DNA from: a virus | Taxonomy: Duplodnaviria; Caudoviricetes | Strand: one strand, 5' to 3' | Virus record (IMG/VR): IMGVR_UViG_3300048855_000202 | Location: 1-28,491 of that record | Length of the DNA: 28,491 nt | Part shown: positions 11,175 through 28,491 of the stretch, piece after piece | Numbering within the stretch: the stretch's first letter is position 1 | How the letters are laid out: each line of letters begins with the position of its first letter | Notes under the pieces: generated by a model | What the model was told of the DNA's origin: nothing | The model's database searches: none | Seen by the model: only the letters and a program-made list of their open reading frames with translations | Translations under genes and position numbers: made by a program

Positions 11175-13058
11175 TCATACCATCAAGATGCCGCGGGTTT
11201 CGTAAACCGAGGGGCCGACCTTGCCGAGATCGTTAGAAGCGGCGCCGACGGCCATGGCGGTGGTGACGATCCCGTCGATGCGCCCGCGCGACTTTGCTTT
11301 GTCGAACATCCGATTGTCTTGGCCATCGGACTCGATGATCGCGTTCGCGGCGCACATGTAAGTTACCGGCGAGTCGTCGATCGTCAGCGAGCCGTCCAGG
11401 ACGTGATCCTCGAGCTTCTCGATCGAGGTCGGCATGGTCAGCTGCTTCTCCTCGAAAACGCGGCGCTTGCCCTGATTGTGTCGAACCAACCTTAGGCCGG
11501 AACCTTCCGGCTTATCCGGGCCTTCGTACAACCAGACGTCCAACCCGATCTGCTCACAGGCAGCCATGAAGTCAGCCATGCCTGCGACGTCGTAGGCTAG
11601 AAACTCCACGTCGTGCTCGTTGACCAACCGTGCAACTTCCGCTGCGGCAAACGTCTTGTCGATCGTAGCTCCGGGCAGCGCCGTGAAGTTCACCTCGGGA
11701 TCGGCAGCCCATTCAACATATTTCGCGACGTCTCGGCGCGCCCGATCGGCAAGCCCGACCTGTGTTGTCCAGTACCACGTCTTGACGAACAGATGCTCCG
11801 GCTCACCGGTGCCCTCGTCGGCCTCTCGCTTCCAGCACGCCGACAGCGCGGTCAGGTCGTTCTTCTTCGACAGATCCAGGGACAGCCAGCACTTCTCACC
11901 CTTGTGCTCGGCGGGGTCGACCTTGCCCTGCACCGCGGCCCAAGGCTCCTCGTCCATCCAGAAGTTGACGACGCCAAGAGGGATGCCAAAGTAGAGGCGC
12001 TTGACCGACATCGCCGTCGACAGGCGCTCGCGAGCGGTCGCGATCTGGCCGCGGATGTTCTCCACGGGGAATGTGATGCCAAGCGCCGGCAGAGCTTTTA
12101 CCCAGCAATCCTCATTTTCAAAGACGGTCTCGTGATCCGCCTTGTCGACCCGCGCGATGTAGGCAAAGGCCTCATCGTCTATAAACTCGCCGCGGCAAAC
12201 TCGCTGGTAAAAGTTCGAGTATTCAGTGCCGACCAGCTGTGTCGACGCCGGCGTGTTGGTGCCCAGCAACATGAGCGCGTCGCCGGGCATCTTCGCGATC
12301 GCGCGCTGCCAGGTTTCAATTGACGACCCGCTCTTGAACTCGTGAATCTCGTCGGCCGACACCAAGATCGGGCGTGGGCCGGAGATCGCCTCGCCGTTCG
12401 CCAGCGACTGGAAAACAGAATTGGTCTCCGGGTGCTCGATCTTGAAGGCATTGTCGTGGAAACCGCGGATGATGACGTCACCGCGGGATTCCAGCGTATC
12501 ATTGTCTTCCGGGTCGGTACCCGGGATAGGCGCGCGGCACATAGACGCCGCGTCCTTGAACAGGACGTTCGCCGTCGCCTTGTCCTGCCCGATGGCATAC
12601 ACCTTGGCGCGCTTCACGCCGTAGTAGCCCATCATGTAGATGCCGATGGCGGCCATCAGCGGCGACTTCGCCTGCCCTTTCCCCGTCTCCAGCCATGCGG
12701 ACCGGAAACGCATCCGACCGCTGGCCATGCGCCAGCCGAACAGCGAGCCGACGACGAAGGTGTGCCAAGGCAATAGGTGGAAAGGCTCGCCAAGCTTGGC
12801 GCCTTCGGTGATGGACAGGACCGCCGGAAAGAACCCGATGGCATGATTGGCCTTCTCCAGATCCCAGCGAAGACCGCGCGCCGCGCCGTCAGCCAGATCC
12901 CTCAGATGTCGCTCAGCAGCAGAGCGCGCGAGTTCCCCTGAGACTATGCGCCCATCGACAACGTCGTGAGCCCATTGCGTCGTCGGGTCATTTGGGAACC
13001 GCTTTGAGATAGCCCCCGCCGACGACCGTCGGCTTTTGCCTTTGGACTTTTCCGCCAT
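11175..13058 (-). CDS. terL: Terminase large subunit
   Basis: LLPWHTF, Walker A-like GKGQAKS, Walker B ADEIHE, nuclease LDLS..DL and RIDG motifs. Confidence 0.96.
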   Translation of the reverse strand: MAEKSKGKSRRSSAGAISKRFPNDPTTQWAHDVVDGRIVSGELARSAAERHLRDLADGAARGLRWDLEKANHAIGFFPAVLSITEGAKLGEPFHLLPWHTFVVGSLFGWRMASGRMRFRSAWLETGKGQAKSPLMAAIGIYMMGYYGVKRAKVYAIGQDKATANVLFKDAASMCRAPIPGTDPEDNDTLESRGDVIIRGFHDNAFKIEHPETNSVFQSLANGEAISGPRPILVSADEIHEFKSGSSIETWQRAIAKMPGDALMLLGTNTPASTQLVGTEYSNFYQRVCRGEFIDDEAFAYIARVDKADHETVFENEDCWVKALPALGITFPVENIRGQIATARERLSTAMSVKRLYFGIPLGVVNFWMDEEPWAAVQGKVDPAEHKGEKCWLSLDLSKKNDLTALSACWKREADEGTGEPEHLFVKTWYWTTQVGLADRARRDVAKYVEWAADPEVNFTALPGATIDKTFAAAEVARLVNEHDVEFLAYDVAGMADFMAACEQIGLDVWLYEGPDKPEGSGLRLVRHNQGKRRVFEEKQLTMPTSIEKLEDHVLDGSLTIDDSPVTYMCAANAIIESDGQDNRMFDKAKSRGRIDGIVTTAMAVGAASNDLGKVGPSVYETRGILMV

Positions 13059-13494
13059 TGTTGCGCCGGCGCGGCGTAATGGTCAGTTCGGCCTCAGCGG
13101 CCGACGCCATCCCGTTCGCGTCCTTCAATACTGTGAACCACGGATTGTACGCGGGCTGCTTCTTGCCCTTGGCCGGGAACACCGCCCCTTCGTCGGCGAC
13201 ATGCCGCATGGCGATTTCGTAAAGCACGTACGCGTCGACCAGGCGCTTGACCTGCCGCTCGTTGGCGTTGGCCAGCTTCTCGGAGCCACGCAGCTCGCCG
13301 ATGATGATGCGCCACTGCCGACGCGCTAGATCATGGTCGAGTTCGTCGGTGAACTGCGCAGCCCAGCTGGGCTCGGTCAATCCCTCGACGACTGAGGGAG
13401 GCATCCGCACCGCCTGTACCGCAGCGATGCGTGGCGGCGGCGAATTCCTCGTTGGCTTGCGCCCAGCGCCCTCGCGTTTACCGCCTCTCGGCAT
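12988..13494 (-). CDS. terS: Terminase small subunit (P27-like)
   Basis: MPRGGKREGAGRKP start; NPW...ELTITPRRR end; immediately before terL. Confidence 0.9.
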   Translation of the reverse strand: MPRGGKREGAGRKPTRNSPPPRIAAVQAVRMPPSVVEGLTEPSWAAQFTDELDHDLARRQWRIIIGELRGSEKLANANERQVKRLVDAYVLYEIAMRHVADEGAVFPAKGKKQPAYNPWFTVLKDANGMASAAEAELTITPRRRNNGGKVQRQKPTVVGGGYLKAVPK

Positions 13495-13671
13495 CGTTTG
13501 ATTTCCGTTTATTCAAACAGCGGAGAAAGTTAAGCAATATCAACACTGCCACTTAGCGTCTGGCCTTTGATTGCGATGGGTCGCCTTTGATTTTTGCTCT
13601 CAGTGCGTATGCTTGACCCATACCGGTGTCCGCTCCCTTGTCTCCGAGTTTCAGACCGCCCCCTGGGGTGG
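13495..13671 (-). other. Probable cos packaging region
   Basis: Intergenic gap between HNH and terS; GCCTTTGATT direct repeats at 13563 and 13583 plus a variant at 13495. Confidence 0.5.
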
Positions 13672-14001
13672 TCATCGGTTCCATGGATGGGCGGGGTCGA
13701 GCGGCCTGCCGTTGATGTCGCTGCCGTGCACTACGCGGTGGCCGAACTGCTCTGCGGTTCTGATCTTATGGCACGCGGCACAGAGGCAGCGGATGTTGGC
13801 GTCGATATCCGGACCGTCGCAGGCCAGCGGGATGATATGGTCGGGCACCGTCGATGGAGTGAGGACGCCCTTGGCGTAGCAGTCGCGACACAGCGGCTCT
13901 GCCGCCAGGCGGCGCTGTCGCTGCGCTACACCGCGGCGACCACGAAGACGATTGGGCTCCGGCTTCCTGTTTCGGAGTCGCCTGTTGATTAGCTTCCCCA
14001 C
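13672..14001 (-). CDS. Terminase-associated HNH endonuclease (start uncertain)
   Basis: EPLCRDC...DHIIPL...NIRCLCAACHKIRT...G.PLDPAHPW. Confidence 0.92.
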   Translation of the reverse strand: MGKLINRRLRNRKPEPNRLRGRRGVAQRQRRLAAEPLCRDCYAKGVLTPSTVPDHIIPLACDGPDIDANIRCLCAACHKIRTAEQFGHRVVHGSDINGRPLDPAHPWNR

Positions 14002-14075
14002 TCTGGCGGTATCCCTGAGCGTCTCGTTCAGCTATAATGCTCCGATAGGCGCGCCAAGCAGGCAGTCGCCGAACA

Positions 14076-14384
14076 TTGGAGCGATCGACGTTGGCACCCG
14101 AAGAGCTAAGCTCGATCAAAGCCCGCTATTTTCGATCCATTGTCGCCGCAGCTCGGTCATACGACGAAGCTTCAGCCCTGCGTCTGATACGGTCGCTAGC
14201 GAATGACTTGCCGACACCTGGCCTGCCCCCGTATCTCGAGGCGGCAGAACAGGCGGCCGTAGCAGCAGTTCGGAACTTGATGGAGAACATGGTAGCGGGG
14301 GACAGTAAGTCGGTAGGCTCTTGGAACAACGCAACGCATGCTGTTCAGAACTGGCTTGTGCTGTCAGGCGACGAGCCGAAATAA
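14076..14384 (+). CDS. Hypothetical moron, antisense to the late operon (start possibly TTG at 14091)
   Basis: Helical-looking ORF; TATAAT at 14033-14038 and GGAG at 14078 upstream. Confidence 0.6.
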   Translation: MERSTLAPEELSSIKARYFRSIVAAARSYDEASALRLIRSLANDLPTPGLPPYLEAAEQAAVAAVRNLMENMVAGDSKSVGSWNNATHAVQNWLVLSGDEPK

Positions 14385-14476
14385 TGGGACGTTTGAGCGC
14401 GACGACCACATCCTCGCTCAAGCGCCAGCATGTGCCGTGGCAGTGAAATAGTGTCCAGGATACTAAACGAAAGATT

Positions 14477-14623
14477 GCCTCAGAGGCGCTCCGCGCGCAC
14501 CCGATCTACGCCGATCAGGTCGTGACCACCGCCGAAGCGGGGGTATGGGGCGTATCCCTTTTGATCGTTCGCCGCCCAACTCGCATCAGTGCAACACCGA
14601 AGCGAACACGGCTGCACTATGCG
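14477..14623 (-). promoter_or_regulatory. Structured late-leader element (tandem hairpins)
   Basis: Stems at 14582-14623, 14525-14544 (C-UUCG-G loop), 14499-14520 and 14477-14487. Confidence 0.6.
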
Positions 14624-14666
14624 GTGCGTCGTCAGTGGTGTGAGGTACAATTGACGGATTATTCGC

Positions 14667-15284
14667 TCACGACTGTGAATAACCACCAGCTATCAGCGTC
14701 GTGTCGTCGACCGTCACCTGCTTGCGGCTAAGGATCTCCATCTCGAGCAGCACCTCGACGTTCTTGCCAGCCACGTTGGTGATTTTGCCCGCCAGCTGAC
14801 CGAACATGCCGACTGGCACCTTCACAGGCTGGCCTATCTCGAACACGCCGCCGTTCGTCGACTTGATGAAGCGCCCTTGCCGCAGACATTCGATGGCAGA
14901 TTCGCGCGCGCGGATCGCTGCCACGGCATCGTCGGGCAGGATCGCCATCTTCTGCCGATCATCAGATGCACGCATGAGGTCGAAGATGCCGGGCACCTTC
15001 ATCAACGCTTCAAACTTGGTGAAGCCCGTCGGCAATACTACGAAGGAATAGCACGGGAACATCGGCCTCGGCACTTCCTGGAACTTCCCACGCGGCGCCT
15101 TTACACGCTTGTAGACCACCGGGGAATATGGTGCGAAGCCTCGCGAGGTTAGGCCACGGCTCGCCGTCTCCTCGCGATTGGGCTCGGTGATGAGGATATG
15201 CCACCTGCCTCCGCTAGCGATTTGCTGAGGTTTTGCTACGTCGATGAAGTCGACGAAGTCACCCTTTTGAAGGTGCTGGAGCAT
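14667..15284 (-). CDS. NusG-family transcription antiterminator (NGN + KOW domains)
   Basis: WHILITEPNRE...PMFPCYSFV...VPGI NGN motifs; FEIGQPVKVPVGMFGQLAGKI KOW motif; occupies the lambda Q position. Confidence 0.9.
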   Translation of the reverse strand: MLQHLQKGDFVDFIDVAKPQQIASGGRWHILITEPNREETASRGLTSRGFAPYSPVVYKRVKAPRGKFQEVPRPMFPCYSFVVLPTGFTKFEALMKVPGIFDLMRASDDRQKMAILPDDAVAAIRARESAIECLRQGRFIKSTNGGVFEIGQPVKVPVGMFGQLAGKITNVAGKNVEVLLEMEILSRKQVTVDDTTLIAGGYSQS

Positions 15285-15498
15285 GGTCGTTTCCCTGTTT
15301 TGGAGAACATGGTGGCGCTGAGACGGCTTCGAGCCCGAACTCCACAAGCTGACGCATCGCCTCGGCCAAGCTGACCCCGTGCTCGGCGGCATAGATCTGG
15401 GCCTGGCCGACCGTCTCAGTGTCGTAATAGCCGGACACGCGGAACATCTCGCTGTTGCGCAGGCGCGAGCCCCTCCCCGGCTTCTTGCGGCGCGTCAT
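15259..15498 (-). CDS. Small putative DNA-binding protein (ribbon-helix-helix-like)
   Basis: RVSGYY...YAAEHGVSLAEAMRQLVEFGL. Confidence 0.6.
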   Translation of the reverse strand: MTRRKKPGRGSRLRNSEMFRVSGYYDTETVGQAQIYAAEHGVSLAEAMRQLVEFGLEAVSAPPCSPKQGNDHAPAPSKG

Positions 15499-15879
15499 TC
15501 AGCGCCCTCGCCGCTTGTAGATCGGCCGCAGCTTCTCACGATCGGAAACCCGGTCGATCTCATTGGCGCGCTCGAGCGTCTTAGCGATATCCCGCTCGGT
15601 CCACTTGTCTCCGAACCTGGCTGCACCGATCCGGACCTGGGCCGTTTGCGACTTCGACGGACGCCGAGTGCGCGTCAGCAGCCTGATCTCATGCGGTGAT
15701 GCCGTCGGCGGGATGGCAGCAGACTTGTGCTCAACCGTTGTGCGGCTGTAGGTGGCCTCGTAGAACTTGCCCTTCAGCACCCACGCGGCGTCGCGTTTCC
15801 AGTCGCCGAAGTGCGGCTCCGGAATTGTGGGATAACTCAGGTGGGTCGCGGTCTTCGAATTCAATGAAGAGCCTCCCAT
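15499..15879 (-). CDS. Hypothetical protein, possibly 5'-truncated
   Basis: ORF abuts the next gene (TGA then ATG); 5' end is unconvincing. Confidence 0.45.
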   Translation of the reverse strand: MGGSSLNSKTATHLSYPTIPEPHFGDWKRDAAWVLKGKFYEATYSRTTVEHKSAAIPPTASPHEIRLLTRTRRPSKSQTAQVRIGAARFGDKWTERDIAKTLERANEIDRVSDREKLRPIYKRRGR

Positions 15880-16016
15880 AGACCGCGACTAGGGAGACGG
15901 GAGCCACTGCCAATTTTCCGGCGGCCACCGATATTCACCTGCCAACCTGTGTCGAGCATCTCTATCGATTTCGTTGGGGCTATGGTACTAGGCAATCCTC
16001 TGACGAGGGATGGAAC

Positions 16017-16250
16017 ATGAGGAAGATCAGCATACAGGCCGACGAGCTCGTCATGCTGATTCAAACTAGGCTTGCGGAAAGCGGGGATTGCCCCCGGGGA
16101 ACGGCTGTGGCGGTCGTCCCGAGCCGAGGTACATCGTCTGGCTGGAGCGCTGTGATGGGCCGCGGCGCTCGGTTGGCGCAATCCAAATGTGCTTCTCGAC
16201 TCGCCGAGATCGAATCGGAGTTGCAGAGGCTTTACATTCTTCGGGACTAG
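16017..16250 (+). CDS. Small hypothetical moron
   Basis: 77 aa with GAGGGA RBS; opposite strand to the surrounding operon. Confidence 0.7.
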   Translation: MRKISIQADELVMLIQTRLAESGDCPRGTAVAVVPSRGTSSGWSAVMGRGARLAQSKCASRLAEIESELQRLYILRD

Positions 16251-16255
16251 CGGGG

Positions 16256-17149
16256 TCATCGACCACCCGCCGCCTGCTCCGAATATTCGCGGTCGACCGT
16301 TACGGTGCCTTCAACCATAACGTTACGGTCACCGTTACGGATCGTCGGCTTCGGCTGGAAGAGGAAGCCGTGGGTCTTGTAGTGCTCGACCAGCGCGGCG
16401 CCCTGCAGCGGCTTGAACCCGGTCCCCGCCTCCTGGTGCTGCGGTAGCCGCTCGGCACGTTCGTCGTCGTCTAGCTTCTGGATCAGCGACTTGAAGCCCG
16501 CGTTGATGACCTCCGCCGATTTCTTGGCCATTTCGTCGTTGTCCGGCAGCACCCTGCCGGGCGTCGGCTCTTCATCCCGCCAATCAGGACGGGAGGCACC
16601 GGCCGCATGCACAGTCACCGGCGTCTTCGGTCGGAACGTGCCGACCATCAGCATATCGCGAGGCTTGTCCCGCAATGGCCGCTCGCCGCCTGGTCCAAAC
16701 CAGCCACGCAGCGCACGATCGCCCGCCTTGCCCCACCCAGCTTTAGGCGCGCGCGGCTGCTGCTGCCTCTTGAAGTCATTGACCGACACCAGCCCAGCGA
16801 GCGGTCCGGCAATCTGATCGAGGCTCCGCGCCCAAGCGATCACCACCGGTTCAAGCTCGGCTACGGCGCGCTCCAGGGCCTCCGCATCGGGATCCGGCAC
16901 GCCGAAATCATAGCGTTGCGCTCCGCCGCCCCCGCTATCGACATCAATGCCGCCGTGCCGGCCGAAGTCGTCGATCCGATCCCAGACCGCCTCCGCGGCA
17001 GAGGTCTGGCGCTTGGACAGTTCGTCGCGCCAGGCCCACCGCAGCGCCATCTCAACGTCGATTTCCGTTTTCGGCGTAGCAATGTTTGCTTTTTGCTTCA
17101 CTTTTCTAATCCGTCTCTTGTCGGCCATTGCGAGATTGCTTCTGACCAT
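16256..17149 (-). CDS. Phage hypothetical protein (nin-like region)
   Basis: 297 aa; IDVEMALRWAWRDELSK and PDPDAEALERAV motifs recalled from Rhizobiales prophage proteins. Confidence 0.75.
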   Translation of the reverse strand: MVRSNLAMADKRRIRKVKQKANIATPKTEIDVEMALRWAWRDELSKRQTSAAEAVWDRIDDFGRHGGIDVDSGGGGAQRYDFGVPDPDAEALERAVAELEPVVIAWARSLDQIAGPLAGLVSVNDFKRQQQPRAPKAGWGKAGDRALRGWFGPGGERPLRDKPRDMLMVGTFRPKTPVTVHAAGASRPDWRDEEPTPGRVLPDNDEMAKKSAEVINAGFKSLIQKLDDDERAERLPQHQEAGTGFKPLQGAALVEHYKTHGFLFQPKPTIRNGDRNVMVEGTVTVDREYSEQAAGGR

Positions 17150-26939: not shown

Positions 26940-27722
26940 TTACCCGGCTCTCTTGTATTGCAAAATGTCATCGTTGGCAGCGATCACTAGGTCGGCTGCC
27001 GACGATAGAATCGACCTAAAGGATGGTTCTGTCTTTTGATAATCGGCCAGAGCGGCCACAGCGTAGGGAGCTGAAGCTAGTCCCTTAATATCGCCGAGTT
27101 TCATATTGGTCGAGGCGACTGCGCTAAATGCAGGAGAGACGAACTCAAACACGGCCGCTATGCCCATCTTATTCTCGACAACGGCATCGATCTGCCAAGG
27201 CCTGGTCGCGCCTCGTACTTCGGCATCAAAATGGGCTCTCGACCCAAAAGCTTCGCTAATACGGGCTACAAACACCTCGCGCGTTCGCTTCACTTTTATT
27301 GCGTCGAGAGCATAAATTGTCCTCTCAACCGCGCTGACTGAAGTGTTCGCAATGGCGGCTACTGCGGCTGGCAACTGGTCCCGCTGCACATGCAGAACGA
27401 AGAAAGAGCGGTGATCAAATTGGACGCCCCACCGCTGTGCAGCTGCAGCAGCAACTTTGTTAAAGGTAGGCATGGCGCCCATCAGGTCGGCGCTCAATGC
27501 GCCATATCCATCGTCGGATACGAAATAACCGCTATCGTCTTCATCGATCCGCACAACCGAGGCTGTGCCATTCGGATACGTCACGGCCGTCGAAACGAAG
27601 GCAGAGGTACCATCTACGCGCGCAAAAGAGAGAGCCTTGGCTACTCCGTCCGCGACGGCGCTTAGGCTGATCCGAGGGGCTACCACCTCGATAGATTGGC
27701 TTATATCAAAGTTCGAGACCAT
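26940..27722 (-). CDS. DUF1828/DUF1829-like protein with possible restriction-endonuclease-like C-terminus
   Basis: VSTAVTYPNGTASVVRI...YFVSDDG N-terminal motif; VRGATRPWQIDAVV...VFEFVSP C-terminal motif; lower GC. Confidence 0.7.
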   Translation of the reverse strand: MVSNFDISQSIEVVAPRISLSAVADGVAKALSFARVDGTSAFVSTAVTYPNGTASVVRIDEDDSGYFVSDDGYGALSADLMGAMPTFNKVAAAAAQRWGVQFDHRSFFVLHVQRDQLPAAVAAIANTSVSAVERTIYALDAIKVKRTREVFVARISEAFGSRAHFDAEVRGATRPWQIDAVVENKMGIAAVFEFVSPAFSAVASTNMKLGDIKGLASAPYAVAALADYQKTEPSFRSILSSAADLVIAANDDILQYKRAG

Positions 27723-28240
27723 GGCGGTGGTGGAATCCTATTTGCGTCGGGGCAGTTCCACAATTCTGCGCACAGCGCAGTGTAATCCTTAAACGTTGAA
27801 ATTGCACGCGGCAGCATTACGGCGACGCCCACTTCGGCTTGCTGGAAAACCCTTATCCCTAATGGCAAATTAAGCTCGAAAGGGTGCCATCGGTCGGTGA
27901 GAGTCTTGAAACGATGATCGGCTGGCGCATTGGCTGAATTGCGGTGCTCTCGTTTCGGACCCCATTCGATAGGCGCAAGCCGCAAACTGGATCTCGCTTG
28001 CGGGACCGCGACTTCGATTTGGCCATAGACATCGTTGTCCCAGCCCGTCATCGGCGTAATTAGCCGAATTGACACGCCGCCGCCGAGCGCGCCTTCGAGC
28101 CTGACTGCGACGACATATTGAAGCGTGGTCGAAGTTCGGTCGGTCACCGCATTCCAGTCCGGGAAAGAATCGAAGCTCTTTGCTGCGGCGTTTACAGCGG
28201 AAAGCCTTGCAAGGAGCGCTTCGATTTGTGCTTCAGTCAC
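27701..28240 (-). CDS. Hypothetical protein, operon partner of the DUF1828-like gene
   Basis: 179 aa; overlaps both neighbours; IEWGPKREHRN and IPPPPW motifs. Confidence 0.8.
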   Translation of the reverse strand: MTEAQIEALLARLSAVNAAAKSFDSFPDWNAVTDRTSTTLQYVVAVRLEGALGGGVSIRLITPMTGWDNDVYGQIEVAVPQARSSLRLAPIEWGPKREHRNSANAPADHRFKTLTDRWHPFELNLPLGIRVFQQAEVGVAVMLPRAISTFKDYTALCAELWNCPDANRIPPPPWSRTLI

Positions 28241-28491
28241 CCGAGCAGTTCCCGCGGCTTCAAAACGCGGAATATCTCCTTGACCTCGCCAGCGTCGAAT
28301 TCGACCTCCTTGGGCGGATTGAACCGGCTGCAGGTTACCCGGCGTCCGGTCCGGCGCACGAGCTGCTTCAGAAAGCTTTTGCCGGCGTGCCCATCGTCCT
28401 CAGGATAGAGCTCGACCACGACATAATCGCCCACTGCCGGGTTCGTCCGCTGCACATAGATCGGCTCCCTGAGCTCATATCGCGGCATCAT
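28237..28491 (-). CDS. S24 peptidase C-terminal domain of a second CI/LexA-like repressor (partial, cut by the window edge)
   Basis: MMPRY...IYV...GDYVVVEL...SFLKQL...FNPP; catalytic Lys present; the Ser would lie just outside the window. Confidence 0.88.
   Translation of the reverse strand: MMPRYELREPIYVQRTNPAVGDYVVVELYPEDDGHAGKSFLKQLVRRTGRRVTCSRFNPPKEVEFDAGEVKEIFRVLKPRELLG

Follow-up and report, generated by a model that had tools for sequence, protein, structure and literature searches.

A NusG paralog and a conserved 140-base element as a candidate late antitermination module of a prophage

Introduction

To our knowledge, the NusG paralogs tested so far control chromosomal or plasmid operons, and the phage late antiterminators tested so far are of the Q type. 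The put RNA of HK022 forms tandem hairpins ahead of long phage operons; it binds polymerase and needs no protein. LoaP of Bacillus velezensis is a NusG paralog able to load at a leader RNA hairpin (the dfn/mln leader); it requires a UNCG hairpin, and its targets are intrinsic terminators (PMC12691694). RfaH with ops is another NusG-paralog system (PMC5995543, PMC7819879, PMC7593976); ops has 12 bases, of which G5, T6 and a pair between C3 and G8 serve for its recognition (PMC5995543), and rfaH-like genes on prophages are mentioned (PMC7593976). Binding of the polymerase clamp and exclusion of host NusG are traits of the NusG family (PMC7819879), and the Rho-binding loop of NusG is I-F-G (PMC7593976). 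For phage 21 Q, AlpA and Caulobacter GafZ the loading site is a DNA element that lies between -35 and -10; their fold bears no relation to that of NusG (PMC11150451).

Here we analyse a prophage locus for which a sequence-only reading had proposed that a NusG-family gene in the place of Q, together with a densely folded leader behind it, antiterminates the late operon. The locus shares with LoaP a NusG paralog gene beside a long operon and a hairpin-bearing leader proposed as loading signal. It differs from LoaP in that the paralog scores 29 against 125 bits for that family, the UNCG loop is not conserved and no intrinsic terminator was found behind the element (13000-16300); moreover, the genes concerned are late genes of a phage whose host is likely a member of Nitrobacteraceae, and the element is larger, with invariant, apparently single-stranded motifs. 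Like RfaH, the paralog is without the I-F-G Rho loop, but here the ops word is not conserved, the ops-facing residues differ, and a tree separates the paralog from ops-linked chromosomal paralogs of the same order (support 99/99). With phage 21 Q, AlpA and GafZ the module shares its genomic slot and its inferred job, processive transcription of virion genes; in this prophage, however, the gene that was truncated and likely displaced is the one whose family weakly resembles Q21/AlpA. HK022 put resembles the element in that both form a series of hairpins in a phage transcript, upstream of long operons; put is protein-independent, whereas every copy of the element found neighbours a NusG paralog and no Rfam model matches it. 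By analogy, the module would work like LoaP and fill the role of Q or GafZ, and it falls outside LoaP, RfaH and UpxY by the cut-offs of these families.

Results

Genomic setting

The window analysed is a whole provirus record of 28,491 nucleotides (IMGVR_UViG_3300048855_000202), 55% complete by the tool's estimate. On its minus strand a Cro-like gene, DnaB, a replication initiator, the NusG-like gene, an HNH gene, terS, terL, portal, protease, capsid and tail genes follow one another to the left end. The late cluster starts at the HNH gene (13672-14001), spans more than 14 kb and leaves the window at the left end; Pfam names its HNH, terminase, portal, protease and capsid genes. Since the named homologues of window genes come from Bradyrhizobium, Rhodopseudomonas and Nitrobacteraceae, the prophage host is likely a member of Nitrobacteraceae.

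An accessory gene in antisense orientation (14076-14384, plus strand) lies between the element described below and the late genes. It has a homologue in locus L086 and, by eye, a similar ORF in L158; relatives also occur in contigs from the sequencing runs X2, X6 and X8, and the DNA between this gene and the element has been exchanged among relatives. DnaB is split into two minus-strand ORFs in different frames (20074-19241 and 19220-18648), each with a DnaB_C match, and the split at 20074-18648 is a frameshift or an assembly error. Three minus-strand genes past the integrase (26940-28491) have no Pfam match at E 0.01. In several unrelated phages an integrase-like gene separates the slot of the late regulator from the late genes (L005 1872-2798; L104, L105).

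The NusG-family paralog

The paralog gene (15284-14667, minus strand) encodes 205 amino acids. Its assignment to the NusG family held up: the NGN domain passes Pfam NusG PF02357 with 35.6 bits against a cut-off of 22.2, and the protein model has its best Foldseek matches in NusG and RfaH chains, matching NusG over the full length at E 8.5e-10. The model (pLDDT 84.6) consists of an NGN domain and a beta C-terminal domain, in which structure prediction places KOW strands at residues 153-193 (pLDDT 81-87). As a single prediction, the model presents only the beta KOW state and is compatible with fold switching to an RfaH-type autoinhibited alpha-helical state.

The protein stays below every NCBIfam cut-off (UpxY, 46.8 against 100 bits; RfaH, 40.2 against 144.5; LoaP, 29.2 against 125; NusG TIGR00922, 26.6 against 135.7). 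Searches returned 13 close homologues; with the E value limited to 1e-10, the number of representatives was 139. A tree of 64 rows places it outside the housekeeping NusG clade (support 100/100) and apart from 24 chromosomal paralogs; the paralog of locus L005 falls in a sister sub-clade whose join is weakly supported. The phylogeny and family comparison proposed with the sequence-only reading therefore separate the paralog from housekeeping NusG and leave it below the RfaH, LoaP and UpxY thresholds.

In place of I-F-G, the paralog loop has I-L-S and a two-residue insertion; the loop F is present in 1 of 14 close homologues as against all 4 housekeeping NusG proteins. Of the RfaH residues that contact ops (K10, H20, R23, R73), the first three correspond to E34, G44 and S47, as mapped via 11 ops-linked paralogs rather than E. 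coli RfaH itself. On the ops-facing surface, an R found in 8/11 and a Q found in 11/11 ops-linked paralogs are replaced by S or A, and by R, respectively, in 14/14 close homologues. With 5 K+R against 6 D+E, the C-terminal domain is not basic, a point against the RNA-loading proposal made below.

A small conserved gene (15498-15259, minus strand) overlaps the paralog start. It has no Pfam family, looks ribbon-helix-helix-like by eye only, and has a recognisable homologue immediately upstream of the paralog in L002, L003 and L005; it is retained even where paralog identity is 33%. Its product could be a partner or a promoter regulator.

A conserved element behind the paralog

The element, which is non-coding, occupies 140 bases (14625-14486, minus strand) and starts 41 bases past the paralog stop codon. 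The intervening spacer (14666-14626) is variable, with 15/41 positions differing in L002. In that locus, whose paralog is 94% identical as protein, the element carries 12/140 changes against 35/98 at four-fold sites of the gene (Fisher p 3e-7, an optimistic value as the edges were set after the alignment was seen). In L005, whose paralog is 33% identical, a 93-column match stands at the same place and scores 49, against a shuffled mean of about 21 and with none of 300 shuffles reaching it. The 3' edge of the element (14486-14476) is a module boundary: the L002 alignment diverges wholly beyond it, and the X2 and X8 contigs also diverge just past it. X2 retains 14476-15523 and swaps the following 253 bases, and X8 shows no difference from the window over 14479-14572 before it departs. 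The comparison with X2 over 14476-14700 draws on 18 of 19 differences; among the nine of these in the element, five fall in loops, two keep a pair, one repairs the inner hairpin and one lies outside that hairpin.

The five stems of the sequence-only reading and its ops-like 8-mer (14533-14526) are all where it had placed them, but the description of the leader as densely folded did not survive comparison with dinucleotide shuffles (z -1.16 for 14670-14460; -1.98 to +0.71 over nine windows). Judged from the window alone, the stem observation is no more than chance. The L002 region folds equally on both strands (z -2.5 on the other strand, -2.3 on this one). Rfam 15 covariance models gave no match to the window at gathering score, nor to 14000-14720 down to E 5.

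Hairpins and invariant motifs

The last hairpin (14520-14499; 8 bp, with a conserved G-C-G-N-A loop) is the best supported. It is in the minimum-energy fold of the window, L002 and L005, two of its pairs change on both sides among these three sequences, and 95.8% of cells are paired. Pair 14517/14502 is U-G in the window, A-U in L002, U-A in L005 and C-G in X2, that is four pair types in four sequences, and pair 14519/14500 occurs as C-G, U-A and G-C. A shuffle control with three rows is not decisive, as 33/500 shuffles reach the covariation score and 9/500 the pairing. The G-U pairs favour the mRNA strand, on which they are retained or newly formed.

Further 5', the long first stem of the earlier reading (14623-14582) has to be given up: its pairing probability is 0.05-0.16 in the window and 0.00 in L002, it is outcompeted by an inner hairpin, and it is broken in relatives. 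This inner hairpin (14605-14581; 11 bp with one mismatch) takes its place. It pairs with a probability of about 0.8 in the window and 0.94-1.0 in L002, where the mismatch is repaired; X2 and X6 carry the same repair, which breaks the first stem. The middle hairpin (14544-14525), with its UUCG loop and ops-like word, has a pair probability of 0.95. X2 keeps the stem via a C-G to U-G change and has a CUUG loop, L002 has one pair broken, and L005 has at this site a 7-bp inverted repeat that its minimum-energy fold leaves unused. Across these sequences the stem appears moderately supported, and the loop and the word are not conserved. The 3-bp and 4-bp stems of the earlier reading amount to -2.2 and -2.9 kcal/mol, and its last stem (14487-14477) is absent in L002 and L005.

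Two motifs accompany the hairpins. A purine-rich core motif (14577-14555) has 19/23 positions common to the window and L005 and is probably largely single-stranded; for its 5' end, every sequence yields a different predicted pairing. A 9-base motif (14494-14486) closes the element, identical in the window, L002 and L005 and unchanged in X2 and X8.

The ops word, promoter and terminator

In the window, X2 and X8, the ops-like word, one mismatch from the ops core, retains G5 and T6 as well as the C3-G8 pair. It is present as described and fails as a conserved signal, since G5 and T6 are lost in L002 and the word is absent in L005. A UNCG-type hairpin fares no better as the signal: the loop is UUCG in the window, L002 and X8, CUUG in X2 and absent in L005. 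No exact ops core stands behind the paralog in the window, L001, L002, L003, L004 or L005. As a control, the exact core was found behind the paralog in 9/23 order-level and 2/20 class-level genome loci.

Alphaproteobacterial chromosomal RfaH-like genes have the ops core after, not before, the gene, with a conserved upstream motif (L119, L126, L127, L128, L129, L130, L134, L135, L137, L048 and L062). Genes and core often lie ahead of polysaccharide-looking genes, as judged by eye.

Within 13000-16300, a promoter scan gave no sigma-70 promoter and a simple scan no minus-strand intrinsic terminator. The 475 bases before the HNH gene, with 140 C and 130 G, show no C-richness. The scanned region thus offers no candidate for the stop that read-through would overcome. 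A candidate -10 hexamer (14616-14621, minus strand), unchanged in L002 and X2, lacks a -35 consensus and was passed over by the promoter scan; speculatively, it would place the start right before the inner hairpin. By eye, L005 has a plausible promoter (1681-1710, two hexamers 16 bases apart) directly before the first hairpin of its element.

Where the paralog and the element occur

The element was found at 3/11 paralog loci examined, namely the window, L002 and L005, and not at L001, L003, L004 and L150-L154, the last five extended to 8-9 kb. L003 (62% identical, with 236 bases past the stop) and L004 (63%, a partial gene) are weak negatives. The distant support for the element comes from one contig, as L005, L014, L040, L075 and L163 are the same sequence. 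The alignment of downstream regions and the covariation check that had been proposed thus yielded a conserved element and a covarying hairpin, at 3 of 11 loci and with a covariation score that 33/500 shuffles also reach.

The paralog lies between replication and packaging genes in L001, L005 and five prophages from a set of 401 genomes, the neighbours in these five being named by eye; the sixth paralog hit from that set is chromosomal. Locus scans with the protein gave no relatives in viral contigs or GTDB genomes and four loci in the metagenome scan. Class- and order-level searches returned mostly chromosomal paralogs without the element, and L166 has no paralog. DNA-pattern scans for the element recovered only the L005 contig again (1/16, 1/18, 1/4), with 0/17 in GTDB and no hit for an exact 26-mer. 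A covariance model of the element found only its own three training sequences among 73 sources and nothing convincing in 45 more. In 1 of 151 genomes it matched inside a coding gene, and this candidate was rejected as not a true element. Neither the pattern scans nor the model searches gave a true element match away from a paralog, blastn gave no match to the element among phages, and no RNA holder was found among the sequencing runs listed.

A chimeric gene upstream and a sister phage without the module

Upstream of the paralog lies a chimeric gene (17149-16256, minus strand). Its residues 1-200 match the family phrog_9306 (about 310 aa), and residues 200-297, the last 98 codons of the gene, correspond at up to 89% to the terminal part of a 255-aa family unrelated to the first. 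The junction is near 16553, and the X2, X6 and X8 contigs stop at that position. The earlier reading had recognised no Q or N homologue in the window. This needs amending in that a truncated member of a family occupying the Q slot is present (17149-16553); the likeness of that family to Q is weak.

In 18/24 loci an intact phrog_9306 gene is followed on its own strand by a terminase subunit (16 by Pfam, 2 by BLAST). The 24 are what is left of 32 loci once 6 apparent duplicates are removed, together with 2 loci whose DNA ends at the gene, and Pfam covered 85/120 ORFs. A NusG neighbour was seen in 0/32 viral loci within the available DNA. The sister phage L083 is 97% identical to the window in terS and terL, 96% in portal and 89% in the upstream gene. 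It has a whole phrog_9306 gene and no counterpart of window 13628-16346, so that the NusG module is absent. We consider it likely, from these comparisons, that recombination near 16553 swapped one late regulator for another. This likely swap supports a late role of the paralog independently of the RNA.

Pfam, PDB sequences, a viral fold library and the Atlas give phrog_9306 no name. Its model (pLDDT 70) has no significant Foldseek match (E 7-8), and Q21 makes up 3 of 17 weak rows. Alignments to Q21 (Z 4.0-5.0, 125-126 residues, rmsd 9.7-9.9) and to AlpA (Z 4.0, 113 residues, rmsd 9.8) are weak; these two are the only ones among 50 rows of a wide search to align over more than 100 residues. The modelled likeness is a lead, not a result. 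The truncated copy in the window is without a C-terminal helix that falls in the Q21/AlpA-aligned range.

Discussion

We propose that the paralog is a late antiterminator and that the 140-base element is the nascent-RNA signal at which it loads on host RNA polymerase. For this full reading we see the probabilities as evenly balanced. Its two parts stand on firmer ground: the paralog likely makes polymerase processive over the late operon, and the element is, to the same degree, likely a functional structured RNA. Transcription would probably start right before the inner 5' hairpin. Going by the NusG family, the NGN domain would bind the polymerase clamp and displace host NusG, and the bound paralog would shield the transcript of more than 14 kb from Rho and pausing; the altered loop of the C-terminal domain probably gives Rho no assistance. 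Specificity would come from the last hairpin and the flanking invariant motifs, neither from the ops word nor from the UNCG loop. The module likely came in by recombination near 16553, replacing a probably Q-like regulator that it truncated. The earlier core idea, a paralog acting with an RNA, is thereby kept in that a conserved cis element with a covarying hairpin lies behind the paralog in two sister sub-clades; the signals then put forward (ops word, UUCG loop and first stem) are not.

The same element could be read as DNA. The paralog would then still be a late antiterminator, acting at a late promoter and pause site with a hairpin in the non-template strand, in the manner of RfaH with a new word. 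The long invariant motifs (14577-14555, 14494-14486) suit sequence recognition, inverted repeats can function in DNA, and L002 folds equally on both strands. However, read as mRNA the element retains or acquires G-U pairs, an 8-bp stem with its flanks far exceeds the 12 bases of ops (PMC5995543), and the surface common to ops-linked paralogs is changed in all 14 close homologues. We hold DNA read-out to be unlikely, while giving it real weight. That the element serves the message of the paralog itself, as a small RNA, 3'-end stabiliser or autoregulatory site without a part in late read-through, we judge distinctly unlikely. Its position 41 bases past the stop codon, its movement with the gene as one block ending at a recombination boundary and its absence from other paralog-bearing prophages would fit such a role. 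But there is no terminator tail after the element, which in both L005 and the window lies on the path to the packaging genes, and tested paralogs as a rule use leader signals (PMC7819879, PMC12691694).

The RNA might also bind polymerase itself as a factor-independent, put-like antiterminator, the paralog being a general processivity aid. Several tandem hairpins with invariant linkers fit such an RNA and paralogs do exist without the element, yet pattern scans and model searches found the element only beside a paralog and Rfam has no match, which makes this explanation improbable to us. The reading of the stems as chance folds in GC-rich DNA, conserved through recent exchange, draws on folding that is no better than shuffles and on the X8 contig, identical over 14479-14572. 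Recent exchange cannot yield the L005 match behind a 33%-identical protein, however, nor the four pair types at one position; these comparisons largely refute this explanation, and we regard it as very improbable.

Among the papers listed by a literature search that took in few subscription titles, none describes late antitermination by a phage NusG paralog together with an RNA leader. The paralog lists in the data sets of PMC7593976 may include this clade. More tentatively, and with less than an even chance in our view, the locus would represent a new phage late-gene switch, in which a distinct clade of phage NusG paralogs loads on a hitherto undescribed multi-hairpin RNA without ops or UNCG and the module is interchangeable with a highly diverged Q-like family not recognised before, phrog_9306. 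The swap would be recorded in this prophage. This natural swap gives a testable function to a common, unnamed family of alphaproteobacterial phages. If the proposal is true, an RNA-loaded NusG paralog in the role of Q would add another way in which phages control their late genes, and 205 amino acids with 140 bases would offer a compact system for how NusG paralogs gain RNA specificity.
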